A DNA stretch of 63,462 bases, filler included, from Stramenopiles sp. TOSAG23-6 (taxonomy: Eukaryota), in assembly GCA_900128565.1 (NCBI GenBank). It is 22 parts of 22 records of this genome, joined end to end, with 100 filler letters (N's around TTAATTAATTAA, not from the genome) between each part and the next. Parts side by side here need not be neighbours in the genome. Positions count along the whole stretch, not along the records: positions 21,499 to 27,421 come from LT636799.1; 21 more parts are not named here. The stretch is one strand, 5' to 3'. Below the pieces are notes generated by a model. That model ran no database searches. It was not told where the DNA came from and saw only the letters and a program-made list of their open reading frames with translations. Both the position numbers and the translations under genes were made by a program. Below are positions 9,400 to 62,046 of this stretch, in pieces; within the stretch, counting starts at the first letter, position 1; each line of letters opens with the position of its first letter.

Positions 9400-10332
9400 T
9401 CTGGTAACAAATATTCTTTTAGGGTTAGGGTTTCATTCTCCGATTCATTATTTTCATGTTTACAATAATTTGATGTTTGGAGTCGATAAATTTCTAAAAA
9501 TGAGCTATACACTGAAAAAATTGTTTCTAGATTTCCATTTTTAAAATTGTCAAAATGAATAACATTTTCATTGACTTGCCCAAACAATCCTGAAGTCACT
9601 GACGTACTACTATTAGGGTTAGGGTTAGGGTTTAAAGAATAATTTTGTATTACTTGTAGCATCATCTATATTTGTACCATCATTTGAATTAAAATTAGAA
9701 TTAGCATGACAATCATCAAGTGATGTATTTATAGTATTAGTAGTAGTATCAATATTTGTACCATTTTTAAAACAATAATTTTTATACTGTTTACATTTTT
9801 CTTCATTTTTTCGTGTTTGAACAGTCATAGCATGCAAAATTATTGCTATTACTGAAGTATACAATTCGAATTTATTTTTTATAGGAAATTTTGTACCTAA
9901 CGAATTTAATTTTGAAGACGTCGAAATAATTTCAAGTAATTTTTTTATCAAAAATTGATTCATTATAAATGTATTACTACTAGTACCCATCATGGAAACA
10001 TTTGGGTTAGATAGCGAAATGTAATTTGGAAAAATATTTCAAAAAAATTTCAAAAATTTGTTAGGTACAAAATTTTTTGAAAAAAAAAATTTCGATTTTT
10101 TTTTTTTTTCGGTAAATAAAAAAAAAAAAATAAAACATACTTAAATATTATTGAATAGATTGTTTCAGAAAAAGTTGTTTGGAAATGTTGTACAGAACTG
10201 CTTGACAAAAATTCAATATTTCGTGTAGAGAGCATTCCATTGTTTAACCAATTTGTTACTTTTTGTGTTTTACATGAAACATTTTCAATCGTACAAGAAT
10301 TCAAATTCACATCTAAAATTCCTTGGAGTAAA
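9400..10332 (-). CDS. Hypothetical multi-exon gene fragment
   Basis: Open frames separated by family intron 10019-10140 and bounded by partial introns at both contig ends; the two downstream ORF-track entries are in different frames near 9625-9665. Confidence 0.45.
10019..10140 (-). other. Family intron, GT-AT, 122 nt
   Basis: ttAA|GTATG..GTACCTAAC..CCAAATTACAT|t tcg; joins ORFs 10050-10310 and 9625-9993 in frame. Confidence 0.7.
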
Positions 10333-13883: not shown

Positions 13884-14752
13884 GTGTCATTACAGGTGGG
13901 TTTTGACCAGTGAACATATTCCAGCCTTTTTTTTCGAGAATTGAAGCTACTTGATAAATTGAGATGGATTTTTCAACGCTTATGATAGGAATACACGCAC
14001 AATCTGGTTCGATTAGTAGTTCAAGTTCAGGAATATTGGAAATTATTTCCTTAACTTTTGCTTCCATATTTTTGTATTGAAGTGCAAAATCTTTGTAACC
14101 ATTGTCTCCCATTCGAAGCATTGTACCCCAGGCTTGAGCCACAACTCCACCCGGTCGGCTACCTTGAAGGGTTGGTGTAATATAGAGACCTTCGCAGCCA
14201 TCAAAGCTTGGCATATAGGAAAGTCGCCTCAGCTGAGGGTCGAGAAAGCAAATAACTGATACTCCTTTACTGGCAAAACCATATTTATGTACATGTATTT
14301 TGGAAAAATATTTCAACAAAAAATCGTTAGGTACAAAATTTCGTACGAAAAAAAAACTTGAATTTGAAAAAAAATAAAACATACATCTACTGAAATTGTT
14401 GTGACACCTTCGATCGAGAAGTCAAATCCTTTTGATGGATGTATTTTTCCGGTTTTGATCAAATAAGATAATAGAAACCCACCAAATATTGTGAAAAAAT
14501 ATTTTTTTTTTTTTTTGCGAAAAAAAAATTCGTTAGGTACGGAATTTCGTACGAAAAATTTCAATTTTGAAAACATACTAGACAGTTATCTACATGCAAT
14601 CCAATATTATTTTTCAAAGCGATTTTTCCAAGATCAAAAATAGGATCAATAATGCCGTGTGTAAATGTTGGAGCGGATGCATATATAGCTACTGTATTAG
14701 GTGTGATATGCGCTTGCACAGCCTTTGGACAAAGTTTGAAGCCAGTCGTTCC
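13884..14752 (-). CDS. SGPL1: Sphingosine-1-phosphate lyase (exons 14752-14579, 14483-14385, 14292-13884)
   Basis: SAPTFTHGIIDPI, GLHVDNCLGGFLL, GFDFSIEGVTTISVDVHKYG (PLP lysine) and GLYITPTLQGSRPG. Confidence 0.9.
14293..14384 (-). other. Family intron, GT-AT, 92 nt
   Basis: gtagAT|GTATG..CCAAAATACAT|gta cat aaa; restores SVDVHKYG. Confidence 0.88.
14484..14578 (-). other. Family intron, GT-TT, 95 nt
   Basis: tgt cta|GTATG..CACAATATTT|ggt ggg ttt; restores HVDNCLGGF, and no AG is available. Confidence 0.85.
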
Positions 14753-14894
14753 ATGTACAATGAAAAAATATTTTTTTTTGTTAAAAATTTTTGTNNNNNN
14801 NNNNNNNNNNNNNNNNNNNNNNNNNNNNNNNNNNNNNNTTAATTAATTAANNNNNNNNNNNNNNNNNNNNNNNNNNNNNNNNNNNNNNNNNNNN

Positions 14895-16890: not shown

Positions 16891-17110
16891 ATTGAAAGTT
16901 AAAAAAATCAAAAGAACAGTGTCGATTTAAAACTGATCAGGATGGTAATCCTGATAAGGGTATGACAAGAAGTAAACGTGACTGTAACAATGAACGNNNN
17001 NNNNNNNNNNNNNNNNNNNNNNNNNNNNNNNNNNNNNNNNTTAATTAATTAANNNNNNNNNNNNNNNNNNNNNNNNNNNNNNNNNNNNNNNNNNNNTTTC
17101 CAAAATACAT

Positions 17111-17503
17111 GCTTCCAGGAGCTGGTGGCGAATTAATCTCAAAATTAGAAAAAGCATTGCCCGTTCGTACGTTTTCCTTTTATCATAGTGTACACTGTCC
17201 AACATTTCATTTTTTTTTTTTTACAATTTTGAATTTTTCGTACGAAATTTTGTACCTAACAAAAAAATATTTTTTTTCAATTTTTTTTTCGTAGGAAATT
17301 TTGTACCTAACAAAAACCAATAAATATTTTTTCACAAACATTTCATGTGGGTTACAAAAACGTGTATACAAAAAAGACGTAGTTAAAAAAGCTGTGCGCA
17401 CTTTGTTTGCAGCACTGTTGAAACATTCCTCATCAGCATATGTCACAACAGAAATCGATGAAGATAATTTTAAATCAAATACAACAATTTGTAATATTTG
17501 TAT

Positions 17504-17549
<46 letters not shown>

Positions 17550-18043
17550 ATTGAATTTTTTTTTTCGTACGAAATGTTGTACCTAACAAAAAAAAAAATT
17601 TGAAAAAAATTTGAAAATTGAAAATATACTTTTACAGTATAGGGAAAAGAGCTTCAGTTCAATTATGTAAATGGTTACAACAACAAAAAAATGCTTTACA
17701 GTTGTCCTATGACACACTTGCTTCAACAATCACTCAAAGAGCTGAATTTTTACTTGAATTGTTACCCGGATACCGTGGATTATATACAAATTTAAATGAA
17801 ATTCAAACATCAAATGAAACTTCAAAAAATTTTGAAAATTTTGAAACTTCAAAAAATTTTGAAAATTCTGAAAATTTTGAAAATTCTGAAAATTTTGAAA
17901 TTCCTAAATTACTGCGTGGAGTTTCTTCTTTAACCTTAAAACAATCTGATAACCCTAACCCTACTCATAAACAAAATGAAAAAAATGCCATTGAAAATTT
18001 ACGTACAATACTTGCATTTGCTGAAGAAGATCACGATGGGATT
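17111..18043 (+). CDS. Internal fragment of a large helical protein (3 exons)
   Basis: Exons separated by family introns ~17167-17343 and 17500-17642; AVRTLFAALLKH and RAEFLLEL segments. Confidence 0.55.
17500..17642 (+). other. Family intron, GT-AG, 143 nt
   Basis: att t|GTATG..GTACCTAAC..ACAGTATAG|gg aaa joins in frame. Confidence 0.7.
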
Positions 18044-18546
18044 AGTATGTTTATTTTTTTCAAAAACAAATCAAAAATTTTCTATGATTTTTTTTTTNNN
18101 NNNNNNNNNNNNNNNNNNNNNNNNNNNNNNNNNNNNNNNNNTTAATTAATTAANNNNNNNNNNNNNNNNNNNNNNNNNNNNNNNNNNNNNNNNNNNNAAT
18201 AATCGTTAGGTACAAAATTTCGTACGAAAAATAAATTCGAAATTGAAAAAAAATTGAAGATACTCCTGAAAATCAAAATGATATTTTTATGAGTAGTGGA
18301 GATGATAAAGATTAAAAAAATAAAAAATCTTTTCGCATTTTGAATTTCTAATTTATAGTGGTCGGTTTATTAAACTAGTTTTTAACCGCCCGCGCCGCTC
18401 GCGCCGCTCCTCTAGCCTCGGCTAAAAAAATCATGAATACGACGAATACCGAATACCGAATGCCGAACGACTCTTTTTTCGGTGTTCTTATTTGTTTCCT
18501 ACTACTTCTTTAAGTACATACATTGTAATAAACAAAATCCAAACAG

Positions 18547-19198
18547 AATTCCGTTTCTATCGCTGTCACAATTGTTCTCGCTGAAGGAAATTTTACGCCT
18601 GTCAACTTTGATGAACTCCAAAAGGAATTAATTAAACATTGTCAAGGAACAGGATCCAAAGGGAAACCGAATACGTGGGACATTAAAAACGTGAAATCGT
18701 TGAAATCATTAATGATTAAAAACGTGAAATCGTCGAAAACATTAATGAATCACGCAAGTGTCAGAGATTGCAATCCAGACATATCTCAATGGGACACAAG
18801 TGCCGTAACCGACATGTCCTACATCTTTTCTCAAACAACGTCATTTAACCAAGATCTTTCCAAATGGGACACAAGTAACGTGACGACGATGAGAAGTATG
18901 TTTTGGCGTTCAGCTGCTTTTAATGGAAACATTTCTAACTGGAACGTCGGAAAGGTGGAAGACATATCCTACATGTTTTATTGGGCGTATTCATTTAACC
19001 AAGATATTTCCAAATGGAACGTCGAAAATGTGAAAGACATGAAAAGTATGTTTTATAATGCAAAGAAGTTTAATGGAGATATTACCAATTGGAACGTTGA
19101 AAAGGTGGAAGACATGTCCTACATGTTTGTTGGAGCATCTTTATTTAACCAAGATATTTCTGAATGGAAAACAAGTAACGTAATAAACATGTCCTACA
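18547..19198 (+). CDS. DUF285 / BspA-like repeat surface protein (fragment)
   Basis: Tandem ~25-aa repeats FNQDISKW(D/N)(T/V)..V.DMSYMF. Confidence 0.88.
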
Positions 19199-19298
19199 NN
19201 NNNNNNNNNNNNNNNNNNNNNNNNNNNNNNNNNNNNNNNNNNTTAATTAATTAANNNNNNNNNNNNNNNNNNNNNNNNNNNNNNNNNNNNNNNNNNNN

Positions 19299-19686
19299 AG
19301 AAGATGTATTGTTGATACCACAAATCCCTGGAATGGTTGGTGTGTGGAATGCAGGATCTCATCAACTTGAGATAAAAAGTCAAAAATATTCTGATATATC
19401 TCCTGAGTTGTTACTTGATCCTAATTCTACGTTAGAACAAGTAATCGCAAGGGATCAATTTCATGGTATGGAGAGACTCAGTCCACAACTCTCACAATCT
19501 AGAGCTCATCGTAAATTATTTGGTAAAACTTTGCGTCTAAAGGAAGAAAAGGAAGACGATGTCCGAGGTTTCAATTCTTTTGAGTTCGATGACATAAGTA
19601 CAGGTGAAATAAAGGAATATAAATTAAATACAAGTACTATTTTTAATCAAGATCCTTCAAGACCAGAAACAGAATCAATTAAATGA
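19299..19686 (+). CDS. Hypothetical protein, C-terminal fragment
   Basis: Open frame from the contig start to TGA, followed by an AT-rich 3' region. Confidence 0.5.
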
Positions 19687-19882
19687 AAATGTTAATACAT
19701 CTAAATCAAATCCTAATAAATCTAAATTAAATAGTAAACAATACATTTAAATCAAATTCTATACAACTAAATAATCCGAAAATGATATTTTACTAAATGT
19801 ATTTAAACGATATTAATAAAAATATTAAAACGTTAATTTGTATATTTATTAATTGAAAACGATAAGCAAAAATAAGAACAAA

Positions 19883-20281
19883 TTACATTTCTTTAGTCTC
19901 TATAGGTGCCAATTCTACAGCAACAGTCGTTTTAGTTTCCTGTTTATGCACATCTGCATTAGAAGGGTTTCTAGCTCGTTCAAATACATTGAGATTTTCA
20001 TCATCACGAGAAAAAACTCGAGATAAAACATTTGAACTTAATTGTACACTACAACTATTAGAAACTGGAGACTCACTATCGACATTTTTGTAAAACTTTT
20101 GTACCCCTCGATTCAAAAGTGTGGTGAATTGCCCATCTAAAAATAATGCAATAAACAAAGCATGTGGATGATCAATTTCGGCTACAATAATACGCATCAC
20201 TGCAGTCAAAGGGACAGCTAAAATAGCACCAACGGCACCCCACAATGAATACCACAATGCTAATGACATTAAAACTACCAC
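19883..20281 (-). CDS. AI-2E family transporter, last exon
   Basis: LALWYSLWGAVGAILAVPLTAVMRII; preceded by the family acceptor CCAAAATACAT. Confidence 0.8.
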   Translation of the reverse strand: MVVLMSLALWYSLWGAVGAILAVPLTAVMRIIVAEIDHPHALFIALFLDGQFTTLLNRGVQKFYKNVDSESPVSNSCSVQLSSNVLSRVFSRDDENLNVFERARNPSNADVHKQETKTTVAVELAPIETKEM

Positions 20282-20504
20282 ATGTATTTTGGAAAAATNN
20301 NNNNNNNNNNNNNNNNNNNNNNNNNNNNNNNNNNNNNNNNNNTTAATTAATTAANNNNNNNNNNNNNNNNNNNNNNNNNNNNNNNNNNNNNNNNNNNNAA
20401 TACGTCTCTTGACCATAGTCGGACAATCAATTTTGAAACCCTTCGTGATGTTGGGGTTACATGGTGTGAATATTACCTAAAACCTGAAAAGCAGAATACA
20501 CCTC

Positions 20505-21398
20505 TTACTCTGCTCTTTTTTTCAGCTCAGTCATTTTCAAAGCTCCGTAGAAATAAGCTCGGCGAAGTGAATGCAGATTTGTTTTTTCATTTGTCTTTAC
20601 TTCTTCTACTTCATCTTGGATTCCCTGTTCACTGAGCCAACGTTCTGCGTCCAACGCTGCCATCGCACCAGTTCCAGCCGAGGTTACCGCCTGTCTGTAT
20701 ACATGGTCTGCGACATCACCGGCAGCAAAGACACCAGCAACATCAGTATGTGTAGACCCTTCTTTCACTGATATATAGCCGCCATCATTAAGCGTCAGAC
20801 CTTGATGTTGGAATATTTTAGTATTTTTGTTTTTCACTAAAACATGAGTTAAAGTCTTTATCATTATTTTTTCAGATTTTTTATCAGTAGGATCAGATAG
20901 AACTTCCTGATCTTCACCTTTAAACTGAACAACGTTTGAATCCCAAAGAACCTTGATTTTCTCATGCTTAAGTACTCTATTTGCCAATACTTTTGAAGCA
21001 CGGAACTCGTCACGACGATGAATGATTAACACAGATGCAGAAGTCCGTGCTAAGACTAAAGCATCTTCCATTGCCGTGTCTCCGCCTCCAACAACAACTA
21101 CAGCTTTATCCCGAAAAAGAAAGCCATCGCATGTCGCACAACTTGAGACGCCACCACCACGATATTCATATTCTCCAGGGACTCCAAGCCATCTGGAATC
21201 CGCACCAGTTGCAATTATAACACTATGTGAACGAAATGAAGTCGTGTTTGTATGCAAAGTCATTGGTTGGGTACTAAAATCTACTTTGGTAATGAGTTCA
21301 GGATTAAAGAAAGCCCCAGCGTCCTGAGCTTGCTGAGCCATAAGTGCAACTAGACTTGGACCAGTACCTCCAATGACACCAGGATAATTTTCCACAGT
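20505..21398 (-). CDS. NADPH thioredoxin reductase, low-molecular-weight type (5' truncated)
   Basis: VENYPG, IIATGA, GVSSCATCDG, VVGGGDTAMEDA, HRRDEFRAS and GVFAAGDVADHVYRQAVTSAG. Confidence 0.93.
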   Translation of the reverse strand, partial: TVENYPGVIGGTGPSLVALMAQQAQDAGAFFNPELITKVDFSTQPMTLHTNTTSFRSHSVIIATGADSRWLGVPGEYEYRGGGVSSCATCDGFLFRDKAVVVVGGGDTAMEDALVLARTSASVLIIHRRDEFRASKVLANRVLKHEKIKVLWDSNVVQFKGEDQEVLSDPTDKKSEKIMIKTLTHVLVKNKNTKIFQHQGLTLNDGGYISVKEGSTHTDVAGVFAAGDVADHVYRQAVTSAGTGAMAALDAERWLSEQGIQDEVEEVKTNEKTNLHSLRRAYFYGALKMTELKKRAE

Positions 21399-21656: not shown

Positions 21657-22286
21657 TATCCAAAAACGAAGGGCAAAATTGAATATATTGATATTGGGAC
21701 ACCTCTTACAAATAAATACTATTTAAATCGTAGTGATAGCTATGGTTTAGAACATTCAACACAACACTATGGAGGAGCTTTGGATGGATTACGTCCATGT
21801 TTGTTTTCATTAGGGTTAGGGTTAGGATTTCAAATTTTCAAATTATTTTTTTTTTCATTTTTTTTTTCATTTTTTTTTTCATTTTTTTTTTCATTTTTTT
21901 TCTTTACAATCGATATACTCCAATGATTTCAATTGTAGTTATAAATATACCTAACAAAAATATCAAATGTTTGAATATTGTTTTACACTACATGTACAAG
22001 TATAAATGGATTATATCTCAGTGGTCAAGATTTGTGTAGTGTTGGGATTGTTGGAGCTCTGAACTCTGCAATTATGTACATTTTCAAAATTAAATTTCAA
22101 TTTTTTTTCATAGGAAATTTTGTACCTAACATTTTTTTTTCAAAAAAAAAAAAAAAAAAATATTTTTCACAAGACATGACAGTCCATGCTATTCTCGGAT
22201 ATGATGTAATTGATGTTGTACTTCGAAAGCGTAATGTAGTTGAAGACTTGATGAAAATGGAAGAAAAAAATAAAAAAATAAAATGA
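21657..22286 (+). CDS. RETSAT-like / phytoene-desaturase-family oxidoreductase, C-terminal exons
   Basis: Spliced: YPKTKGKIEYIDIGTPLTNKYYL..SYGLEH..LRPCTSINGLYLSGQDLCSVGIVGAL..TVHAILGY. Confidence 0.8.
21799..21993 (+). other. Family intron, GT-AT, 195 nt; contains TTAGGG repeats
   Basis: ccAT|GTTTGTTTTC..ATACCTAAC..CACTACAT|gt aca; restores LRP-CTSINGLYL. Confidence 0.75.
22076..22177 (+). other. Family intron, GT-AT, 102 nt (in frame)
   Basis: attAT|GTACATTTTC..GTACCTAAC..CACAAGACAT|g aca. Confidence 0.78.
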
Positions 22287-23745: not shown

Positions 23746-25191
23746 ATGGATTATGGGGGTGATGGTGAATATGGTGGTCATAGTGGAATTCTATACAAAC
23801 GAAAGATCAAAAAAAATATCGCAGGTAGAGAAAAACTTACAAAATGGCGAAAACGTTTCTGCCTTCTCGCATCGCCATCCACGCCAGATGGATCCCGTTT
23901 TTTAACGTATTATGTAAGCAAGGCTGCTTTCGAAAAGCGTCAAAAACCTAAAGGCGCTATACGCATAAATGCAAGTATGTCTGTTAAGCTTCATAGAGAT
24001 GTAGAAGAGAAATTTTCATTGACGACAAATAGTGGACAAGTCTACTATTTTCGAGCTGCCAACGCTTCAGATCGAGCTATATGGTATGAAAATATAAGTG
24101 CTGAAATTGCACAGTTGAGTGGTGGCCGGATTAGAGGCTTTGGTAATGAATCAGTTACTTTATTTTCTCGTGAGGGTTGGCTAATAAAAGGCGATGGATT
24201 ACGAAAACATCGAAGATTCTTTCAACTTCAAGGAAATTTACTTTCATACTATAAAACAGAGAAAAAGAAAAAAAGCAATCACATTGGTGATATTAGTCTA
24301 AAAGATGCAGTTGTAGATATTCCTGATAGACTTGGATTTTATTTTGAAATTACGGCAAATGAACCAAAACACAAGACATGTAAGTTTTATTTTTTTGAAA
24401 ATTTGAATTTTTTTTTTATAGTAAATTTTGTACCTAACAATTTTTTTTTTAAGAAAATTTTGAAATATTTTTCCAAAAATACATATATTCTAAAAGCAGA
24501 ATCTCTTGATTCACGACATGCGTGGATATCAGCAATTGAAGGCAATATTGCCCTAAGTAGAGCAAAAATTAGTGCAGAAAGTGTTCATGAAGGTAGCTTT
24601 AACACCGCAATGGAAGAGGCACATGCAAGAATGTCTTCTCGACTTGCTGGTGATGATCAAAGTATATCTTCAAACATTGGTTTAATAGATGAAAATAAGA
24701 AGAAAAAAAAGAAAACGAAAACGAAACCACAACCACCTGAAAAGGGGATTTCATTTAACGAGCGAATAAAGCGACTGAGTGTACAAAATTCAACATCTAC
24801 CGATTCGATTCATCCACCTCCACCTCCATCTGAAACACATCAAAATAAAATACAAAACTTTTCATCAGTCATTGACTCGACATGCGACGAGGATGGTGGT
24901 TTTTCAGTAATAAAAGAATTCAGTAGTTCTGGTACAATCGAAGTTAATTCTCATGATTTTGATGGTTTCAGTTTTGATGGGGAATCTACTGAAGAAGAGG
25001 AAGAAGAAGCAGAAGGAGGAGAGGGACATTTTAATTGTATTACAGAAAAACCATCTCACATTGAATCGGAAGAAAAATATTATTCCCCTGCGAAAAAAGT
25101 AACAAATATAAATACAACAGATTCTATATCGAAGGATATTCTGAATGAAACTGTAAATGAAACTGTAAATTCTGATGAGAAAACTGAATAA
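23746..25191 (+). CDS. Tandem PH-domain protein (intron 24380-24484)
   Basis: Two PH domains: SGILYK..WRKRFC..YFRA..RAIW and EGWLIK..RRFFQL..YILKA..RHAWI. Confidence 0.88.
   Translation: MDYGGDGEYGGHSGILYKRKIKKNIAGREKLTKWRKRFCLLASPSTPDGSRFLTYYVSKAAFEKRQKPKGAIRINASMSVKLHRDVEEKFSLTTNSGQVYYFRAANASDRAIWYENISAEIAQLSGGRIRGFGNESVTLFSREGWLIKGDGLRKHRRFFQLQGNLLSYYKTEKKKKSNHIGDISLKDAVVDIPDRLGFYFEITANEPKHKTCKFYFFENLNFFFIVNFVPNNFFFKKILKYFSKNTYILKAESLDSRHAWISAIEGNIALSRAKISAESVHEGSFNTAMEEAHARMSSRLAGDDQSISSNIGLIDENKKKKKKTKTKPQPPEKGISFNERIKRLSVQNSTSTDSIHPPPPPSETHQNKIQNFSSVIDSTCDEDGGFSVIKEFSSSGTIEVNSHDFDGFSFDGESTEEEEEEAEGGEGHFNCITEKPSHIESEEKYYSPAKKVTNINTTDSISKDILNETVNETVNSDEKTE
24380..24484 (+). other. Family intron, GT-AT, 105 nt (in frame)
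   Basis: gacAT|GTAAG..GTACCTAAC..CCAAAAATACAT|at att; restores the PH strand KTYILKAE. Confidence 0.82.
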
Positions 25192-25397: not shown

Positions 25398-27255
25398 TTA
25401 TACATTTCGTATTATTATACCACGTGGTTCAATCACTGGATTCACCATTGATATAAGCTGTTGCCGTCTAGACGAACGAAGTTTAGTAAGAATATTTTTT
25501 CTTTCTTTTATTTTTTTTCTATTTGTTTCCATTTTTATCTTTGGAGTTTCGTTTATACGTGACATTTGTACTTGGGCATAATCATTCATCATTTGACAAA
25601 AGTTCCGTTTATCATTTATTATAGATTTCCATTTTTGAATACCACTGTTTTGCAATATATATTTTAACAACGTTTTTGTTAGGTGTACATTTTCATTGTA
25701 AAAAACATATTCGTTTATGTACAAAATTTCGTATGAAAAACAAATAAATTTAAAATTCAATTTTCAAAACGTACATGTTTTGCATTTTGTCTAGAGGCTG
25801 TTCTGCCCATAATTCTTCATTACTATTTTCTATATTTTTACTGATTTCAATATTTTGAGAATTTTGGGAATTTTGAGGTATCAAAGAACAGATTTTTCTC
25901 ACAGCACGAAATCTAGGTGTTGCAGATTGTATTGCTGTTTCATGTATCATGAAAAACTATTACAATTTGTTTTTTTGTTAGGTACAAACTTTAGTACAAC
26001 AAAAAAAAATAGGGAAAAACAAATAATGAAAACCTACAGCGCGCTTCCTATTGGCAGTTACATGAAGTTTGTATTCAGCGATTTTCCCTTCTACACCTGA
26101 AATAGTATCAGAATAATTTGTGTCATTTATAGTATCATGAAAATTATCATTGTTTTTTTTTGCATTTTCTAATCGAATCACATCTGCAGGACGGATTGCA
26201 CTAGAACACCAATCCCAAAAAATACCACGAAGCCTTTTGCGATCGGAGGATGCATTCACCCATTGGATAGCTTGTAGCGATTCTTTCAGTTTTGAAGGAT
26301 TCATTGCAAGGTACATCTCAAAAGGTGTAAGTGACACTAACCCTAACCCTAACCCTAATTTTGTACCTAATTTTGTATCTAATTTTGTATTTATTTCATC
26401 TTTTGGCTGCTGTAAACGTTTCATTCGAGCACAGAGAGCAATTCGGCGTGTATCTAAAGCGTTCACCTCTCGTAGACGATATCTTAATCGTCCCACAACC
26501 AATGCAATTTCTTCACACTGAGTTTTTTTTAATTCGTGTATATTTTCGATATTTTCGATATTTTCAAATTGTTCTTTTCGTTTGATAAGAAAATTTCTAT
26601 TCAATAATGTAGGAGTTAATATATCATCGATTGCATCACGCCCCGCATGAAACACATGATCTGTCCCAATAGTGTCTATTGGGAAAGGGGGTAATCTCGT
26701 CGATACTTTGTGAACAACTTTGTATTTACTATTGGTATTGAACGTTTCACCTTTACAATCATCTGTCACGAAATCTTTTTCTGTGAAAAGTTCAGAATTT
26801 GACATACGAATCAACATTTCTTGTTCAAACTTTTGAAGAACTGAACTATTTGCTATAAGCCAACATAATGCAATGTATAACTCCCGAGATGAACAGTTAT
26901 TCAAACAAGTACCTCCGTGAAAATCCGCGTCTGATAGGTCTCTGTAACCCCATTCTATTAGATAATGTCTGACAAAATTATACACTATATCCAAATCTAT
27001 TCGATTGTTTACATCCATTTTTTCCCACAATGCCATAAGGCTAATATTGCCTTTCACAGAGGGCACTGAAAAATCAAGAATTCGAACCAATACTAACTCA
27101 TGCAGTGTACGAAGCAGCGTCACTTTTGCCTCAGACTTGTCAAATTTGCCACGCCTTAATGTCTCTGGGCTTATTGTTACTCCAAAGTATTTGAGAGAAT
27201 CACACACTAAATGCGCCGCTGCTTGAATGTCTTCTCGACATACACGACGCGCCAT
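25398..27255 (-). CDS. TEDC1: Tubulin epsilon and delta complex protein 1-like (3 exons)
   Basis: ISPETLRRGKFDK, SSRELYIALCWL and IFWDWCSS match TEDC1/C14orf80 motifs. Confidence 0.78.
25645..25774 (-). other. Family intron, GT-AG, 130 nt
   Basis: aacAT|GTACG..CACCTAAC..GCAAAACAG|t ggt joins in frame. Confidence 0.68.
25942..26037 (-). other. Family intron, GT-AT, 96 nt
   Basis: gct|GTAGGTTTTC..GTACCTAAC..ATGATACAT|gaa; removes the in-frame TAA. Confidence 0.72.
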
Positions 27256-27586
27256 TATTACACTTTTTGAACAGGGTAAGAATAGATGTACTTTTACTTA
27301 AAATGTAATGCAACTCTCAGATTCTCTCTTATAGCTTATTTATTTTGTTGACTTTTTAAGATTAGAGTGATTTTATTATCGCAATTTGCGGTCTGCATTT
27401 TTTTTTTGCGTAAAAATCTTCNNNNNNNNNNNNNNNNNNNNNNNNNNNNNNNNNNNNNNNNNNNNTTAATTAATTAANNNNNNNNNNNNNNNNNNNNNNN
27501 NNNNNNNNNNNNNNNNNNNNNTTTTTCGTACGAAATTTTGTACCTAACGATTTTTTTTGTTTTTGAAATATTTTTCCAAAATACAT

Positions 27587-29810
27587 TAATGTTAGAGTGT
27601 GAAGCTTTTGCTTGTGCAATGCAACTAGCTAAACGTGCAATGCAGAGAAGAAGTGGCTTTGTACGTTTTCATCGTGAATTTTAAATTTATTTTTGTTTTG
27701 GTTTTCGTACGAAATGTTGTACCTAACAAATGCTTTTTCTAAAAAAAAAATATTTCTTCACAACTCATGAAACCGGTCATGGAGGTGCAAACTCCAATAA
27801 AAAATACGAACCCAGCGGTTCTGTTGAAGCTCCACATTTGTTCTTCTGCACAATCCCAGATGACGTAAGCAGTGCGATGGCTCTAAAAGAAATCGTGAAA
27901 ATTCGTTGCGGTGAAAGTGTCTCGGAAGTTTTATACGTACGTTTTCATTATTAATTTTCAATTTATTTTTTTTTTGGTTTTCGTACGAAATTTTGTACCT
28001 AATTTTATTTTTTTTTTCGTACGAAATTTTAATTTTCTTATTTTCTTTTTGCTAAGAACATTTTGCACCTAACAAATTTTAAAATTAAAATGTATTTTTA
28101 CACATTACGTAGTGAATATCATCGTTGGCTTACTTTAGGTTTTACTCATTTGCTACCAAGAAATGCGTTATTACGCGTTTTTGATTGCGCTCTAAATGTA
28201 CGTTTTATTTTTTTTTCAATTTCGAATTTATTATTTTTTTTATACGAAATTTTGTACCTAACAAAAAACATTTTGAAATATTTTTCCAAAATAAATGAAG
28301 GATCGAAAATATTTTTTAGAATTGCTGTAGCTCTCATTTGGAGACACAAAGATTTCGTGACAAAATTAAAAAGTAATGTTATTGTGAATGATGTCAACTC
28401 ACTTGAAGGTAAAACACAAATTGAAAAAAACTCACTTGAAAGTAAATCGCAAATTGAAAAAAAAACGTCAAAGAAGAAAATTGAAAAAAAAACGTCAAAG
28501 AAGAAAATTGAAAAAAAAACGTCTAAGAAGAAAATAGAAAAAAAAACGTCTAAGAAGAAAATAGAAGCGGATCCAAATTACAACGTAGAAAAATTTGAGA
28601 AAGCAATTTGGCTAGATGCAATAGCAGATGCCGGTGCTACCATTCTTACGGTTGGTTTTTCATTTCCTAATTTTAAACGAGGACAACTCAAGAAACTTCG
28701 TCATAAAAGTTACAAGGATGATGCAAGGCCTGTGTTGCAGAGTCAAATGCAAGCTGTACTATTATCAAGTAGCAATCGATCAACTCAACAGGAAAGTAGT
28801 GATGGAAGTTTTGAAGTTGATTCAAGTAATGGTCCTAGAGTAAAGTGTCTTAAAGTGGTTGACACTAAAAGACGTACGTTTTCATTATGAATTTCAAATT
28901 TATTTTTTTTTTCGTACGAAATTTTGTACCTAACAAATTTAAATTTTTTTTTTGAAATATTTTTTACAATACATGTGCACAGATTCATCTTGTCCGAACA
29001 CCGATTGAAATTCATTCTGTTGATCGCTCAGATTCTGCCACTTCTGATATTTTAAGAGGTGTAAAAGGTCGTCGTCGTTGGTGGTTTCTCAAGGAGTGGT
29101 TGAATTTATCATGGTGTCTGGAACAGCCAGCATTATTATATTCAACTGGTTATCATGGATGGGGTCTGGAAAATTTGTTTGAAGCGAGTGCAAAACATTA
29201 TCAGAGACGTGTTAAAAAAAATGGTTTATGTCCTTCTTTATTAATTATAGAAACTGTTGATAGACAATGTTTTGGTGCTTTTATATACCACACTTTATCT
29301 CCACAGGTGTTTTGTAGTGGTAGAGATGCGGAAGCGCCTTTCTATTGGTTATTTCGATTTTCCAATTCAAAAACAGCGGAAGGTGAAGTTTTTAGATGGC
29401 AGATGCCTCTACCTGAAAGTATTGTGCCAAATAGTAGTACTGGTAGTACATTGAGTACCAATAGTCTTAGTAGTAGTGGCAGTGGTTATACTTCTGTAAA
29501 CAAAACCTCTGTATGTTCTCCAATTGTCATTAGTGAAGATGGGGATAAAGAGTACTCATTAGCAATCGGCGCCAGTAGACTTGGGGAAGCTCTATTTATT
29601 GATAGCTCATTGCATAGTGGTCACACGGACCCATGTTCTGAATTTGGTATTGATGAGGCCTCAACATTATGGAGAAAACCTGTCAGTACTCAGGAAAAAA
29701 ATATTGTTACAAATAATAATACTACTGAGAATGATGAAAATAATAACTCCGTGCAGTTTAAAGTGCGTTGTCTAGAAGTTCTATTATTACGTGGTGCAGG
29801 GAATCAATGA
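27587..29810 (+). CDS. TBC (Rab-GAP) plus TLDc domain protein, TBC1D24-like (5' truncated, 4 internal introns)
   Basis: Spliced TBC motif WLTLGFTHLLP..LRVFDCALNEGSKIFFRIAVAL; TLDc LLYSTGYHGWGLENL, LLIIET..FGAF, LFIDSSLHSG..C..F and F.VRCLEV. Confidence 0.82.
27661..27768 (+). other. Family intron, GT-AT, 108 nt
   Basis: ttt|GTACG..GTACCTAAC..CACAACTCAT|gaa. Confidence 0.7.
27937..28110 (+). other. Family intron with duplicated internal motifs; acceptor non-AG (GT by the spacing rule, uncertain)
   Basis: tac|GTACG.. two palindrome/branch boxes ..ACACATTACGT|agt gaa; the frame requires a phase-0 join. Confidence 0.55.
28198..28296 (+). other. Family intron, GT-AT, 99 nt (in frame)
   Basis: ctaaAT|GTACG..CCAAAATAAAT|gaa gga; restores DCALNEGSK. 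Confidence 0.88.
28874..28974 (+). other. Family intron, GT-AT, 101 nt
   Basis: aga c|GTACG..TACAATACAT|gt gca; links the TBC exon in frame to TLDc ORF 29100. Confidence 0.78.
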
Positions 29811-29975
29811 TATACATATATACCTATTTAATATTTAATACAAAAATATCCCCATTTAATTGTTTAGTCGTTTAGTCTTTCATAGTTATAAGCTGTTTAA
29901 TTATTTAGTCTTATTTATAAATATTTTGTATAATCATTAGAATACTGTGTCAACGTTGACTGCGTATACTTTTTT

Positions 29976-32210
29976 TTATAGTTGTATAACATTTACATCA
30001 GCATCAAAAGATTTTTCCGAATCTGACTTTGGGTCCTCAAGTGATCCACCAAACCCATTTTCATTTATATTCCAATGTTGTTTTTCCATTTCTCCTGGAA
30101 TTACAATTTCAGTCTCATTTTCCTCTTCAGTGTCATCAAGACTGATATCACTATCGATGTCTTCACTACCAGATGAAACATCACCTATATTATCTACATC
30201 ATCATCATTTATATCCGGAGAAACCTCGTTAGTAGAACCTTTTGAAATTGCCTCTTGGATTACTGAAGTACAGGTAAATGTTTCTGAAATTGTCTCTGAT
30301 GTTGCCGATTTTTTACACGTAAATTTTGGTATCGGAGGAGGTAATATTTTTTCTGGATGAAGTACTTTAATTTGATCTAGTTCTGGTCCTTGTGATGAAT
30401 GCATAGTAGAAAAATCTGGTAATGATTCATTTGGATACATAAATATTGTAGTTAGTGCTATTATCGCTTGAGATAATTCTGGTTCGCGAAACAATGTTCT
30501 GTCTTGATTTTTGCTACTGTTTTCCTTTGTGTCATTATCATTAGAATCATTTGAATCATTAGAATCATTTGGACTATTTAAGGAGTTTGGAGACATAAAT
30601 AATACTAAGACGAATTGGCTAGCAATTGTTTTAGCTCTCTTTTCGGTTGTTTCAATATCATCTTTTGATGTGACTAGTTTGAATATTAAATTTCGGATTA
30701 TAAAAGATAATGCATATAAATGTTGGGGTGGGACTAGTAGTGTCTTATTATCAAATAACATTTTGATTGTTGCACATCGATCACTGACATCTGGAACACG
30801 CGCAGCTCCTAACAAGGCATAGAAACATGTAACTGGAATATTATTGTGAAAATATGCCAAAAAAATTGTTTTTTTGTTAGGTACAAAATTTCACACAAAA
30901 CAAAATTTAGGTAAAAAATTCATGATGAAAACATACATAATTGGTGTATTTAGCAATTTGAACCATTTCGATAAAAGCCTTCCAACAGAGAGAATTGCTA
31001 CTTGACCAGTGCCAATGTCTTTCTCTAAATTCAAATGACAACCCTCATCGTATTGATTACACAAATGATCTAATAAATCATTTATTTTTGAGTTATCAGC
31101 GACATCTGATGGAACTTCACCAGAAAATAAATAAGTGATATTAGTATCAAGAGCAAATGTACTGAGATACGAAACACAATCAGTCAATATGACTGGCAAT
31201 CTCCCATGTGACTTCAATGTAACACCAAAAACACCTCCATTTTGTGTGAGATTTATCTTTTTAATACAATTTGCTTCATGCTCCTTGTTGACCACTGCAG
31301 CAAGTTCTTCAGGTGGTGGTATTTTAGTCTCGACAGAATGTATGACATTGCTGTTATATTTTACAAGTAATTTTTGCAGGTGACAAAAATTTTGAATGGC
31401 ATTGCATAAAAATATTGAACGTGCTGATATATTATGAAAAAATATTTCAAAAAAAAATCGTTAGGTACAAAATTTAGTACGAAAAAAAAACGAATTTGAA
31501 AAAAAAAGAATACATACATCCTTTGACTTTTTTCATAATATTAAACACTTCTCTATTACACATGACAATTTTATTCCGCGTTTCTTCTAAAATTTGATAT
31601 TTTTTAGATAGTCCGATGTATTGTGAATCATATATTTTTTTCGGTTTAAAAATATATATAAAGTACAAAATTTTGGTACAGTTTTTTTGTTTTTTTTTGG
31701 AAATTCAATTTTGAAAACATACATATTTGTGGCTGTTTGATCATCTCCATTTTCACTTTCGGAGTGAATTTCCTGCTTATAAAATCGATAGTCAATTAAT
31801 AGTTCTTCACGTCTCGCAAACAATTGCTTTAGCAAAGGCATTTCAGCTTCAAATCCTTCAAGTGGTGTTAATAATAAGTCCTGGCTTACATCGACGAAGT
31901 GATACTGCATGAAGCCTCTGACTAAAGCTTCCGCACATTCACTGTTGCAGTCATGATTACTTTTGAAGCTGAAGATAGATTTTGCGTATTGTAATGCAGC
32001 ATCATTAGCTGCTTGCTGTTTCTTGATGAAATCAATTGCTGAGTGCTTTATCAAACTTAAAGAAGTTTCTATATCTTTGCTTTCGTCCATTTCAGTGAGA
32101 AAAGCCATTTCATCAAAGTCTTTTTTTATCGAAGCAGAAGTTCCAAGAGAATCACGCGCTTTCGTAAGTACTGAACGACCAAACAATTCTAATTTCCTAG
32201 AAAAATTCAT
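29976..32210 (-). CDS. BAR-like coiled-coil plus degenerate RhoGAP protein (4 exons)
   Basis: N-terminal helical BAR-like region (RREELLIDY); RhoGAP-like VFGVTL..LPVILTDCVSYL and VGRLLSKWFKLLNTPIIP. Confidence 0.7.
30838..30936 (-). other. Family intron, GT-AT, 99 nt
   Basis: attAT|GTATG..CAATAATAT|t cca; restores RhoGAP PIIP. Confidence 0.78.
31427..31517 (-). other. Family intron, GT-AT, 91 nt
   Basis: ggAT|GTATG..CATAATATAT|ca gca. Confidence 0.72.
31616..31722 (-). other. Family intron, GT-AT, 107 nt
   Basis: aatAT|GTATG..CACAATACAT|c gga; branch box is degenerate. Confidence 0.7.
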
Positions 32211-32452
32211 GATTCGTTTGGGCGAAATTAAACGTTCTGCAAGTTAGTTAGTTATAAGATCTTCTTGACGTGTTTTTTAGTTTTGCGTTGTTTTTGCAGA
32301 AAAAAAAAGATTTTTTTTTCGAATTTTAATTTTTTGGAATCGGGATTTATTTCGTGTATTATCGATACACAGCAGAAACAACAGTCAGTCTTCTTTTTCG
32401 TTCGTATACCAAAACAACAAGAGTGAACCTCTTCGTCACTATACAACTAAAA

Positions 32453-33642: not shown

Positions 33643-34450
33643 AATTGTCTTATCGTCACTTCCACTCACAATATTTAGAGAATCTGGAGAAAAATGAGCA
33701 GATCGAACCCAATTTGAATGACCCAAAAGAGAGCATTTAAAACGCCTAGATGGCATTCCCCATACCATGATACTTTTATCATCACCAGCAGTGAGCATAT
33801 CTTTTCCATCGGCTGAAAAATTAACACAACGAACTGCCCTTGTATTTTGGAAAAATATTTCAAAATTTTTTTTTTTTTTTTTGAAAATTTGTTAGGTACA
33901 AAATTTCGTACGAAACCAAAAAAAAAAAAAATTTGAAATATTTTTGTAAAAAAAAAATAAAACATATCTGCATGAACTTTCGCACTTGTGTGTTTTCCTT
34001 GTACTGTTGGTCTCCAGACTCGAACGGTACGATCTGCTGAAGCAGTGGCAAGATTATTTCCATTTGGTGAAAATGAACAGTCAAATATATCACCGTGGTG
34101 CCCCGTGTAACGATACGCTCTCAATTGTGACTTAAAGTTCCAAACCATGACAGTTGCATCTGAGGAACAGGAGGCTAATTGTTTCATTGAAGGAGAAAAA
34201 CTGAGACCATTGACACGTCCTTTATGACCACGAAACGTTTTCTATAGTGTGTTTGATTTGTATATAAATGGTATAGAGTAAATGAATGTCGTATATATAA
34301 ATATAAGGGGAGAAAGAAGAAGGAGGGAGAAAAAAAACACAATTTCTATTTCAATGAAGGAAACAATGTCTATAGAATATAATGTACCTCTAATTTAGGA
34401 GCAGATATCAATGGCATCGAGTATAAAGAATTATCATCAGACAATGTCAT
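33643..34450 (-). CDS. POC1: POC1 centriolar WD40 protein, N-terminal exons (34450-34388, 34241-33968, 33838-33643)
   Basis: [37 protein letters not shown] and [13 protein letters not shown]. Confidence 0.9.
33839..33967 (-). other. Family intron, AT-AG, 129 nt
   Basis: gcAG|ATATGTTTT..CCAAAATACAAG|gg gca; restores [13 protein letters not shown]. Confidence 0.75.
34242..34387 (-). other. Ordinary GT-AG intron lacking family motifs, 146 nt
   Basis: gag|GTACATT..CACTATAG|aaa acg; joins PKLE-KTFRGH. Confidence 0.75.
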
Positions 34451-45627: not shown

Positions 45628-48600
45628 AGGACCTGGTTGTGAAGTATCAAGTGTTAAAATTTTTACAGTAAAATGTCTTGAACAAAATTCAACAAATACG
45701 AAAACAAACCTTTTGCAAAAACTTTATCATGAAGCACTACGATCGCATTTGTTCGCATCTCTTTTGAACAAGGAAAAAGAAGCACTCGCTGCTGAAAGTT
45801 CGCCTTGTGATGTACATGGTGCAACTTTCAGTAATGTTATGGAGGAACCAAAAGGTATAAAATTCGAATTTCCACTCGAAGAATCGGAATTACCAAAAAC
45901 TATAACAAGAGATCAACAGCAGACTTTATTATCTGGATTTTCACACACGTTAGACTTATCTGCAAAGGTACTATCTTATATGAAGACAACATCAGTCGGA
46001 AAAATACTAAATGACAGTGTTGATACAGGTGGGTGTGCTCTCCACGAAACCAGAGACATATCTAAATTTACAAAAGAGCTTTCATCGTGTACACCAAACT
46101 TTGTATTGTGTATTCGACCCAATACATGTAGCGAAAAAGAAGAAAAAGATACTGAATTGTCAAAATTTGATGGTGCAATTGTGACGCAACAGATTCAGAG
46201 TTGGAATTTGAAGTCACTCATCACTGTTTGTTCAAAAGGTATGCCCTTTCGTATACCATTTAAAAAATTTCTCATTCGTTATCATATTTTTGCTCCGACG
46301 TATATGTTTCGTGACATCACTTTCGGTACTATACCTCAAGAATTGGTCATTGAATTATGTGCAAGATTAATTGATGTTATACATGGACAATCGATCTTAT
46401 TCAAAGGTGTAAAAATGGGTATGACTTGTGTTGTATTCCGCTCTGAAAAGACTCTTAAAATGCTTGAAAAAAGTCGAAATTTTGAAATAATGGGTGACGT
46501 TCTGAACACACAAAATTTCAAATTTGCAGAGTCAAAGCTTTTAGTGATTCAACGTACAGTAAAAGCTTGGGTGTACCGTCACAAAGCCGTATATCAACTA
46601 GGATTATTGCATCAAATGCGAGTAGCTTGGAAGAAGAAATCATTTGATGCATTAAAAAGTTCTCTTGCAGAAGCATCCATTGTTGAAAGTTCAATAATTT
46701 CAAAGAAAAAGCAACCATGGCCTTTCGCGACATATTTTTGTTCAGAAATGAAATTACGAAGAAAACAAATGGCTGATCTTGAAGAACGACAAAGGATGGG
46801 AATAACTGTTGAGCATCTTATGGATGGTGATGCGTACGCTAGACTAGAGGAATTTGGTGATGCCTTAGATCAATGTAACAAAGTAGGATTGATAAATCAG
46901 AATGTGTATTGGTTAAAGAAGGAATACAAAATTGCTTTAAATCGACGTAAAGCTGAAAATTTAATGACAGAAGGCCTGAGAAATTTTGACAAAAAGAAAA
47001 TTCTCGTCGCCACAGAGCTTGCACAGAGACCTGATATGCGAACAAAATATGGAGAAATTTTTGCTGATCAAGTCGAAGAATTAGGTAAAGTGTTGGAAGT
47101 TATACAAAAAGAAATTCCTATTTTCGAGGAACTCGAGCATCTTCTCAGTATAGGCTGTATACGAGGTCAACCGGGTAACCTTGATACATCCTCAGTCACA
47201 TCTGAGACTGAAAAACTTCTGAATAATGTAGTTGTATCTCTGAAATGTATTCCTGGAGGTATAAAGTCAATGAGAAGTAAGATTTTAGTACGATCTGCCC
47301 ATCTCATCCAAGAAATAAGAAAATATTTGTTGGAGGAAAATGATGAAATGATTGAAGACTGTCTACGTCGATTTTCGAAACGTGAAACTTCTAATTGTGT
47401 GAAAACGGAGTTTAACTTAATTAGAAAAGATTTTGAAAATCGAAAAGTAAAAAAGGTTTTGTGTAATATTTTAGAGACTGGTAAAGTTTCTGGTGTGTAT
47501 GGATCTGTCGATACAGACAATATTAATGTAGAAAAACTGAAACTTGCTATTAAAGAAGCATCTGAAGTTGCGGTTTCCGAGCGTTTACAAGGTATGTTTT
47601 TTTTTTTTTTATGAAATTTTTTTTTATAGGAAATTTTGTACCTAACAATTTTTTTTATATTTTTTTTTGAAATATTTTTCCAAAATACAGACACATCGAC
47701 TTTACTAGCTGCTGTATCGGGTGTTGTTCGATGTAGAATTGCGTTGAAGGCTGCGTTCGATTCGCAACAAAAATTAGATGAACTTATTGATATACAAGAA
47801 AAGAAGTTGATCGGTGAGAGATTTGAAGAAGAAAAAGGCGTTTTCGATATTTTGGATAGTGAGCTTACAATAGAGAAACTAGAAATGACCAAAATATTAG
47901 GCACCCTTAATGAAGAAGAAATACAAAATTTTCGTGCTGGTGTAGAAAATCGAAAAATGCAACAAGATCATTTTGATAAAATATCTAAGGCTAAACATGC
48001 TATTGCGTGGGAGAAAAAAAAGGAGAGCATGCAATTGGACGTGAAACTTTCCTGGGAGAGATTGAAATTCATGTTATTAGAAGCTGTCGCATCGTATCAA
48101 CACCAACTTACAAAAGAAGAAATTAAATTGATTGAGCATATTTGGGAAGAACACGATGTAAGTGATCAATTTCTCAGGTATCTTCGTATAGGTATGGGAA
48201 CAGGTCCTGTTGGAGAAATGGATACATCCTTAATAGACACCAACAAATTAGATCTTACAATGAAACGCGCTGATGCACTTGAAAACTTATCAGAGGAAAC
48301 TCGAATGTTGCAGCGAAATTCGCGAGTCATTTTCAAGCTTAGAGTTGCTTTAAAAAGTGGCACTTGGTCAGATGTTGTTGGTGTGATTTCAAACTATCGC
48401 TTTGACGTAAAATGTGATCCGTATAATGCATTAGTTCTTCCTCATTCAGATGCAGAAGTTGACCGAGCATTTTTAGAGTGGCAATATTTTAATGAAATAG
48501 ATAGATTGACAGTGGCGCTAGAAACTGGTGGAGGCAAAGGAGATATAGGTAGCATGGATTACCGAGATGTATCTACTAAAGTTTTAGGTACAGCAATAGA

Positions 48601-60307: not shown

Positions 60308-62046
60308 ATGTCTTCTATAACTGCGTTTGTAGTATGCGTTGCTACTGGTTGTGCATGGTGCTATGCTCGTTCTAGACATGGCCCTGATATCTTTAAGAAA
60401 GTTCCAAAATGGCAACGAAAGAAAATGCGTCGAAAGTTGCGNAAAAAAAAAGCAACGATTAGTTCAAATTCAGCGCAAGAAGGAAAAAGAGACAAAGCGG
60501 AAACTAAAACGATTTAATAGTACGTGTGGTGATGTATTTGTACAAGGTTCTGATCGTGTATGGATGAAAGATGATGATTGGCTTGATAATCAGGTTAGAG
60601 CTTTACCCGCAATGGCTGAGTTCCCACATCTTATCAAACCTGCTCAAACAGCTCTCAAAGCTTGGCGTATACGCTTTAATAAAACTACTTGGAAGCGCCT
60701 TTTTAAATTATCTGGAAGAGATGGGCGTGGAGATGGTGCAAAAGAGCGTGTATTGAAGGAATTGAATGAATGTGTCCCAGTAATTGCATATGTTCTTGAC
60801 GCTGTCTCAAGATGGAATAGAAAATCTAAAGAATCTAAAGCTTCCAGAGAGTCAGACTCTAAAATCACTATAGTTGACCTTTGTAGTGGCTTTGGGATTT
60901 TGTCAATGTTTTTATCAGAAATACTCCCACCTGAAAAAGTAAAAGCAATAGTTTTAATTGATAAAATGTGGCCTCTGAAAAATCAATCACCAAAAACAAA
61001 TTCAAACCAAATTTCGTGTGAACATTTAACTACACCTGGTTGGCCTATTGCATTATATAAACGAAAAGTCAATATAAAAGCAAAACGAGAATTGAGACAA
61101 ATACACAAATACGTGTTTGATAGAGCTTCTGAATCTGGACCGACCATTATTATAGGAATACATTTATGTGGAAGTTTAAGTAACAGAGTATGTTTTCAAA
61201 AAAAAAAAAAAAAAAAAATTCATACGAAATATTTTTTCATACGAAATTTTGTACCTAACAAAATAATTTTAAAAAATTTATATATTTTTTTACAATACAA
61301 GCAGTACAACTTTTTAATCAAAGAAAAGATGTCAAACTCTTAATATTGAAGCCATGTTGTTTGCCAGGATACAAAGCTGTCCATCAAGAGCTTGAATGGA
61401 CTTTAGGTAAGCATCATTTCACAGCTGCGGAATTATGTATGTTTTAATTTTTTTTTTTTTTTCCAGTAAAAAAAAAAAAATCGAATTTTTTTTTTTTGGT
61501 TTTAATTTTGTACCTAACAAATTTTTTTTTTTAGAAAAATTTTGAAATATTTTTCCAAAATACATATGAAAATAATAATAATAATAACAAAGATATGGAA
61601 ACCCAAATGTGTTCAAATGTCAAATATGTATTGAAAAATAGTACAAATAATCAAAAATGTCTTAGTAAGAGTTGTACTGGACATCATCATGAAAAAGAAG
61701 GATCAAGATTTGATAAATGGTGTAATCATGTATGTTTTTTTTTTTTTTAACAAAAAAATCCAATTTTTTTTTTCGTACGAAATTTTGTACCTAACGATTT
61801 TTTTTTAGAAAAATTTTGAAATATTTTTCCAAAATACATTTGTTCTTAGGCATTGACACCTCTTCTTTCTCTTCTTCTTCTTCTTTTTCAGATGATAATA
61901 ATCATAATCATGATACTAATGCACATAGTATTATTGGCAATTTGGAATGTGTTGGTAAAAAAAGTTCTTTTATTGCGGGTTCAAGAAAACCATTTGATAT
62001 TTCTTCATGGAAAAAACATCTTGTTGACATCCAAAGTTGTTCTTAA
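60308..62046 (+). CDS. Class I SAM-dependent methyltransferase-domain protein (4 exons; frameshift at N ~60442)
   Basis: IVDLCSGFG, GIHLCGSLSNRAVQLFN and LILKPCCLPG after splicing. Confidence 0.82.
61188..61300 (+). other. Family intron, GT-AA, 113 nt
   Basis: aga|GTATG..TACAATACAA|gca gta; only this join reaches LILKPCCLPG. Confidence 0.8.
61437..61565 (+). other. Family intron, GT-AT, 129 nt
   Basis: ttAT|GTATG..CCAAAATACAT|at gaa. Confidence 0.78.
61730..61839 (+). other. Family intron, GT-AT, 110 nt
   Basis: aatcAT|GTATG..CCAAAATACAT|ttg ttc. Confidence 0.8.

Follow-up and report, generated by a model that had tools for sequence, protein, structure and literature searches.

An introner-like family of short introns with a mostly AT acceptor in Stramenopiles sp. 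TOSAG23-6

A 105-nt intron in a PH-domain gene and its family

We analyze a 63,462-nt stretch of DNA from Stramenopiles sp. TOSAG23-6 (GenBank assembly GCA_900128565.1), hereafter the window, and within it a short intron at positions 24380..24484 (plus strand) that interrupts a PH-domain gene and belongs to a repeated family of introns ending mostly in AT. The window consists of pieces joined by N44-TTAATTAATTAA-N44, about 1005 bp each over 6073-21398 and then about 5900 bp each, slowly decreasing; adjoining pieces need not adjoin in the genome. GC content lies between about 23 and 44% per 2 kb, and the open reading frames (ORFs) are eukaryotic, among them TOP3B, a myosin with MyTH4, PH, WD40, TEDC1, cyclin, PFK and others.

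The focal intron is 105 nt long and runs from GT to AT. Its junctions read gACAT/GTAAGTTTT...AAAAATACAT/atattc, with slashes at the exon boundaries; the 3′ end can also be written ...CCAAAAATACAT/atattc. The upstream exon ends in ACAT (24376..24379, plus strand), the last two bases of which recur at the intron's 3′ end, and at this locus the direct repeat is four nucleotides long, with ACAT present again at 24481-24484. Upstream, 212 codons of open frame end in phase 1, and excision of the intron joins them to a frame of 234 codons; the Pfam PH domain falls in two stretches, one on either side. A search for homologues of this gene spanning the intron returned none at E ≤ 1e-10 in the near-length range. 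Three boxes on the plus strand stand out within the intron. The 5′ box GTAAGTTTT (24380..24388) has the family consensus GTAYGTTTT and is the putative 5′ splice site. The core box ATAGTAAATTTTGTACCTAAC (24418..24438), which in most copies reads CGTACGAAATTTTGTACCTAAC, contains CTAAC at 24434-24438, the candidate branch site. The 3′ box GAAATATTTTTCCAAAAATACAT (24462..24484), a conserved block of the 19-copy alignment described below, ends in the AT acceptor and places the intron in the CCAAAA subfamily. The intron matches the family profile at E = 1e-15 (nhmmer).

The family has 23 full-length copies in the 63 kb, with both ends readable, and about 20 partial ones, or about 0.7 copies per kb. 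A nhmmer profile built from 11 copies yields 46 matches on both strands at E < 1e-3, and a second profile of the family yields 48 at E < 1e-2. The core motif is present in 40 of the 74 AT-rich islands of at least 60 nt, and exact or near-exact copies of the 3′ box occur in 24 places. Full-length copies have a median length of 99 nt (range 91-174) and a GC content of 0.18. N masks interrupt 11 family copies; copy 25774 was excluded from the catalogue, an AT end and an AG end being both compatible with its frame, and the 3′ ends of copies 30936, 33967 and 61188 were fixed by family homology and reading frame together. All intron counts here refer to the family, as an automatic list of ORF-to-ORF junctions was too noisy for counting introns outside it.

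When 19 full-length copies are aligned, homology extends from end to end. The 5′ box GTAYGTTTT, in which columns G7, T8, A9, G11 and T12-15 are invariant or nearly so, is followed by middle blocks common to the copies, for example CAATTTCGAATTTATT or ACAAAAAAATCGA, which have no known splicing role; then come the core CGTACGAAATTTTGTACCTAAC, a T/A run of variable length and the 3′ box ATATTTTTYCAMAATACAT. The core segment GTACCTAAC is invariant in 19/19 copies. Identity between pairs of copies reaches 0.90, the median being 0.69. Distant variants are inherited together: the CCAAA form of the 3′ box is found in none of the 12 copies with C at intron position +10 and in 8 of the 11 without it (P = 3e-4). 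Because the +10 base is tied to the variant of the 3′ box, the copies appear to descend from different master copies, which points to a mobile family and not to converging signals.

Family members sit at unrelated positions in genes for myosin, WD40, PH-domain, TLDc and TEDC1 proteins, sulfate permease, 5′-nucleotidase and others, and so show the many similar introns, at non-homologous positions in unrelated genes, by which introners are recognized. Their distribution is very uneven, with five copies within 1.4 kb (27522-28974) and none in the 795-codon TOP3B ORF. Every one of the 23 full-length copies is in sense orientation and has open reading frames on both sides. They begin with GT (21 copies) or AT (2) and end with AT (18), AA (2), AG (1), TT (1) or GT (1), and the first base of the downstream exon is G in 12/23. 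The two copies that start with AT (ATATGTTTT) are those at 8956-9048 and 33840-33967, and a 3′-masked copy at 13790-13883 starts with GC (GCATGTTTT).

Splicing evidence and the AT acceptor

Reading frames and RNA contigs both bear on where these introns are cut. With the ends set by homology, the longest flanking frames are joined in 23/23 full-length copies, and in 0/23 when the 3′ end is shifted by one or two bases. Contigs from public runs, three of them metatranscriptomes and one an independent DNA metagenome, were placed on one N-free 5.9-kb piece (27522-33443). RNA contig X9 record 30 joins position 31426 straight to 31518, and so skips exactly the 91-nt copy at 31427..31517 (minus strand; GT...AT after an exon AT). 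At the copy 28874..28974 (plus strand; GT...AT between frames of 280 and 277 codons), X7 record 19 stops at 28873, on one side of the intron, and X9 record 27 picks up on the other, at 28975; DNA contigs of run X3 cross from the exon into the intron on both sides, so the population sampled in that run has this intron. X7 record 17 spans the 74-nt exon that separates two copies and reaches 27659, just before the frame-checked copy 27661..27768 (plus strand; GT...AT). Records 17, 19 and 27 were seen without the remainders of their contigs and are consistent with splicing rather than proof of it. Removal from transcripts as an intron, a further mark of introners, is thus found in the frames of 23/23 copies and in RNA contigs on one piece, and the same frames and contigs support AT, mostly, and not AG, as the acceptor of the family. 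In all four runs, bins that contain the element have a summed contig depth of 1e3 to 3e4, compared with about 2-5 in exon bins, which fits thousands of copies, summed contig depth not being the same as copy number.

A single full-length copy ends cleanly in AG. It lies at 47592..47690 (plus strand) in the myosin gene, follows an exon that also ends in AG, and separates frames of 661 and 1033 codons, with the Pfam domains Myosin_head and MyTH4 flanking. The original prediction had named a second AG/AG copy, ending at 33839, and that end proves to be one base out of frame: the downstream WD40 repeats lie in a frame that needs an intron of 128 nt, not 129 nt. The copy in this WD40 gene consequently occupies 33840..33967 (minus strand) and runs from AT to AA (...ACAA) after an exon AG. 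A third departure from the common pattern, at 27937..28110 (plus strand), is 174 nt long with a duplicated core; it follows an exon AC, begins and ends with GT, and lies between frames of 70 and 259 codons.

GUAUGU is the established consensus of the 5′ splice site, and CURAY/UACUAAC that of the branch site. Because these established sequences match, we read GTAYGT as the 5′ site and CTAAC as the branch site, the latter inside a 20-nt conserved core, and the introns would be removed by the major-type (U2-like) spliceosome. Between the A of CTAAC and the 3′ end the median distance is 41 nt (range 34-52; 21 copies). Since many ATs follow the branch site within the intron, a first-AT rule is impossible and a 3′ box at a near-fixed distance must place the cut. 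The 3′ cut would then be set by the conserved 3′ box (ATATTTTTYCAMAATAC+AT), about 41 nt past the branch A, and not by AG. No small nuclear RNA or transfer RNA genes were found in the window.

Matching ends and the origin of the family

The original prediction had counted an AT at the end of the upstream exon in 15 of 19 AT-ending introns. With both ends readable the count is 14 of 18, and the four exceptions are the same ones it had listed: 10019..10140 (minus strand; nhmmer match, frame-checked; exon AA), 25942..26037 (minus strand; in the TEDC1-like gene, frame-checked; exon CT), 27661 (exon TT) and 28874 (exon AC). Each of the four agrees with its intron end at one of the two positions. 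A 5′-masked copy with its 3′ end at 33388 would restore 15 of 19; RNA contig 33237-33389 enters its terminal AT by 2 nt, which weakly implies an AT exon. At another 5′-masked copy an RNA contig at 27586 enters the intron end by just 1 nt, an equally weak indication. Exon AT precedes 14/23 full-length copies, compared with 8.8% of 21,314 coding dinucleotides (binomial P = 6e-10), so that within the window the excess of exon AT goes well past what chance would give. No exon AT precedes any of the five copies with a non-AT end (2x2 table 14/0/4/5, Fisher P = 0.0037; an earlier set of 21 copies gave a permutation P of 0.007). The two dinucleotides are identical in 15/23 copies (14 AT/AT and 1 AG/AG), nearly always as AT. 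The data therefore support an identity of exon end and intron end that is linked locus by locus, as a 2-bp target-site duplication predicts (P = 0.004).

How did the matching ends arise? An introner reading of the family is well supported, and the evidence supports an introner-like mobile intron family with a non-AG acceptor. More specifically, we judge the chances evenly balanced that the focal intron is one copy of a short, very AT-rich, non-autonomous introner-like element whose exon-side AT came from a DNA-level 2-bp duplication or from insertion into A^T. Under this proposal the element would have multiplied in a marine stramenopile, each copy now being a spliceosomal intron, and insertion at an AT target would have left either a duplication, AT-[GTAT...ATAC]-AT, or the two halves of A^T at its ends. 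A 2-bp AT target-site duplication is a plausible and the simplest reading of the matching ends. A cut at GT...AT restores the pre-insertion exon exactly, which would open a route for an AG-less element to spread through coding sequence. Published introner families often take a splice site from their target-site duplication (PMC9860276; this and the other publications are cited from the parts of their text available to us). We favor an origin at the DNA level because of the locus-linked identity, this published precedent, and a partial copy at 9842..9952 (plus strand; middle blocks only, nhmmer E = 1e-9) that lies antisense to the sole long open frame of its region.

Several observations weigh against insertion of a DNA element. 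The family lacks the structure of a miniature inverted-repeat transposable element (MITE), in which a cognate transposase and family-specific terminal inverted repeats, at least about 10 bp long, are expected: its inverted termini measure 4-6 bp (GTAT/ATAC; 6 with AT), or 3 bp in the GTACG subfamily, and since the 5′ end carries no mirror image of the 3′ box there is no long inverted repeat of the MITE kind. A Pfam search of the 69 ORFs in the window found no transposase domain, in agreement with the original prediction; of its proposed introner or MITE origin, the repeated introner-like family stands, and the window shows neither a long terminal inverted repeat nor a transposase. No full-length copy lies clearly outside genes in the window, and no empty site was seen among the DNA metagenome matches listed, on one piece, where uncovered parts are uninformative. 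Public contigs gave the core motif at 3 metagenome, 6 viral and 3 prokaryote-genome loci, all of them motif-only and unrelated, and no copies from outside the window. The match also stops after two bases, exon position -3 equalling intron position -3 in 3/11 copies (read off the alignment output), and non-AT ends are present in only five copies, so the linkage test rests on few loci. Because the repeat is nearly always AT, and AT is self-complementary, duplication, a preference for insertion at AT and RNA pairing lead to almost identical expectations; by the published criterion, a near-invariant 2-bp repeat cannot tell duplication from target preference (PMC9860276, available part). The sense orientation of all 23 copies is also expected from RNA-mediated spread. 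Of the proposal that a 2-bp AT duplication supplies a non-AG acceptor, the AT acceptor and the locus-linked match hold, and duplication is inseparable from site preference or RNA pairing within the window.

An origin at the RNA level, which we consider rather unlikely, would account for the same ends by pairing: exon AU+GUAU would pair with AUAC+AU and join the splice sites, while the AT/AT match would come from joint selection for complementary ends, or from reverse splicing that favors certain sites, and not from duplication of DNA. The 6-bp helix is possible in 77% of cells and is seen in several single-sequence folds, and at copy 27937 the exon AC and the intron end GT are complementary and not identical. 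The sense orientation of 23/23 copies, a family without long terminal inverted repeats and a window without a transposase also agree with it. In contrast, the pairing does not covary. Terminal pairing holds in 77.0% of 113 cells and in 77.4% when partners are shuffled, with one compensatory cell, a result that tells against pairing and insertion alike; the complementary ends described in the original prediction are a consensus-level property without covariation. RNAalifold finds no terminal helix in the family, only a 4-bp hairpin at the core, and eight single-sequence folds have z-scores from +0.11 to -2.08, so that their fold energies are unremarkable. Position +4 of the GTACG subfamily stands opposite A, and the antisense partial copy at 9842..9952 is a further point against RNA-level spread. 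At the AG/AG copy 47592 the two ends are identical and not complementary, so that the informative copies split one each between this locus and 27937. Euglenid nonconventional introns have no conserved borders and extended base-pairing of the intron ends; we rejected this class for the present family, in which borders are conserved and no consensus helix forms.

It is improbable, in our estimate, that these are old, vertically inherited introns with unusually long obligatory signals, whose exon AT would be part of a 5′ splice-site consensus of an altered U1 or U5 interaction, without any mobility. Conservation of the 5′ end, CTAAC core and 3′ box far exceeds that of the remaining element, so these blocks are under selection as signals, and G follows the intron in 12/23 copies, like at ordinary splice sites. 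Against this reading stand the co-inheritance of middle blocks and end variants as subfamilies (P = 3e-4), pairs that are 90% identical over their full length, the crowding of five copies into 27522-28974 against none in the TOP3B ORF, and the lack of an exon AT at all 5 copies with a non-AT end.

Very improbable, finally, is a set of true ends two bases upstream, AT...AC of U2 or U12 type, with the AT repeat an artefact of boundary ambiguity: in formal terms the 14 AT/AT copies fit AT...AC as well, giving the same mRNA under GT-AT, TG-CA and AT-AC readings, and in AT-AC introns a first A is known to be compatible with a last C, but as a general rule AT-AC is ruled out at two loci with unique boundaries (28874, not readable as AT-AC, and 27661), where RNA contig ends at 28873/28975 and 27659 do not fit a cut 2 nt upstream, and the same GTAYGT box would need two registers, the AG copy 47592 being plainly GT-AG. 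U12-type introns have a 5′ motif [AG]TATCCTT and a branch site TCCTTAAC located 10-26 nt from the 3′ end; we rejected this type for a family with GTAYGTTTT at its 5′ end and CTAAC 34-52 nt from its 3′ end. GT...AT is the sole register that fits all copies.

Carried to the scale of the genome, DNA-level spread of an introner-like element leads to a stronger and more tentative proposal, which we hold to be possible and doubt more than we believe: the majority of introns genome-wide would be GT...AT introns from a burst of one ~100-nt element, on the order of 10,000 copies at the density of the window, with a 2-bp AT duplication serving as acceptor and the spliceosome retuned so that the 3′ box, at a set distance from the branch site, positions the cut in place of an AG.

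Further copies, neighboring sequence and known intron systems

The best match to the family model is the copy at 61730..61839 (plus strand; nhmmer E = 1e-19), which is frame-checked and runs GT...AT after an exon AT, as does the copy at 61437..61565 (plus strand; nhmmer match, frame-checked). At 14293..14384 (minus strand; frame-checked), again GT...AT after AT, the repeat extends to ATGTA. Copies 17202-17342, 27937-28110 and 39560-39652 carry internally duplicated blocks, either two cores or two 3′ boxes, so that elements seem to change by local duplication too. Nested insertion was considered for the double copies 27937-28110 and 17202-17342 and rejected, since they look like internal duplications and not clean insertions. 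Between two convergent genes, with stops near 62054 on the plus strand and near 62370 on the minus strand, the region 62017-62408 holds three partial copies in both orientations, each of them in sense only if the 3′ untranslated region of the opposite gene extends to it. At the 40316 intron, comparison with solved 5′-nucleotidases aligns the downstream exon, and the upstream exon has no detectable match.

The TOP3B ORF (window 3-2390, 795 codons), a gene without a family intron, is identical block for block to the EukProt protein GSMAST32.ASY1.ANO1.874.1 (P0001), the next best matches being diatoms at about 47% identity; on this basis we take the source to be a marine stramenopile with a MAST-3-type label. 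P0001, the only named public protein for this ORF, lacks eight internal blocks of the continuous frame, which suggests false introns in its gene model. Telomere-like TTAGGG arrays of 2-5 units occur at seven loci (9419-9429, 9613-9629, 17954-17964, 21810-21826, 26336-26358, 62959-62969 and 63130-63158), with 14 matches where chance would give 0.5. Some fall within ORFs, as at 26336-26358, which encodes LGLGLG in the TEDC1-like ORF; some directly follow a GT-like site (21800-21826), and the loose end of one RNA contig carries the repeat. The ORF at 18532-19251, on its own 1-kb piece, matches the repeat family Pfam DUF285, which takes its name from Mycoplasma proteins, very strongly (E = 1e-94). 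It may be a BspA-like repeat protein of a protist, or else foreign DNA.

In the stramenopile, MAST-3 and Incisomonas literature we found no published description of a GT-AT intron class, although the supplementary species lists of PMC9860276 and PMC12130899 may include the lineage. Neither the available text of a single-cell genome paper on such lineages (PMC5778133) nor that of a 2026 preprint (10.64898/2026.04.17.719054) mentions unusual splice sites. The 2025 introner survey, in its available part, dropped families with unfamiliar splice sites unless they were supported by RNA (PMC12130899), and surveys that discard unfamiliar ends in this way would miss a GT...AT family. For bursts of intron gain, introners offer the best explanation to date. 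An AG-less family that restores the frame precisely would show how far the 3′ splice-site rule relaxes when a mobile element supplies other signals, and it would offer a natural system for studying 3′ splice site choice. In practice, a gene finder limited to GT-AG introns will get most gene models of the lineage wrong.

Three known systems come close, the introner elements of Amoebophrya and the algal introners most of all. In the tunicates Fritillaria and Oikopleura, as proposed here, the major spliceosome removes many AG-less introns that are tied to transposon insertions (10.1101/2025.08.15.670264, available part). Those are animals with AG...AN end patterns, as quoted in PMC7789003, and a single 100-nt family with a fixed core is not described there, to the extent of the available text. 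The introner elements of Amoebophrya (PMC7789003, available part) are likewise non-canonical repeated intron families of a marine protist, with no transposase to account for them. Direct repeats of 3-5 nt span their intron boundaries and inverted repeats link one intron end to the other, similar to the present arrangement. Introns of Amoebophrya, however, have no conserved terminal dinucleotides and inverted repeats of 8-20 nt, whereas the family described here has fixed ends (GT in 21/23, AT in 18/23), yeast-like GTAYGT and CTAAC signals, and a minimal inverted repeat. There is a further likeness to the introners of Micromonas, Aureococcus and many marine protists (PMC9860276 and PMC12130899, available parts), which are hundreds to thousands of similar short introns at unrelated gene positions. 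Like the present elements, they are non-autonomous, carry short direct repeats over their splice sites, and are excised in a way that keeps mRNA length. The direct repeat is 2 bp here and 3-9 bp in the published families; inverted termini in the present family reach no more than 4-6 bp, and ordinary splicing signals are much shorter than its conserved core and 3′ box. Published introner families, as far as the available part of PMC12130899 extends, have GY...AG ends, or ends that were kept only among GT, GC, GA or AT with AG or AC, whereas the family in this stramenopile ends in AT in 18 of its 23 full-length copies.

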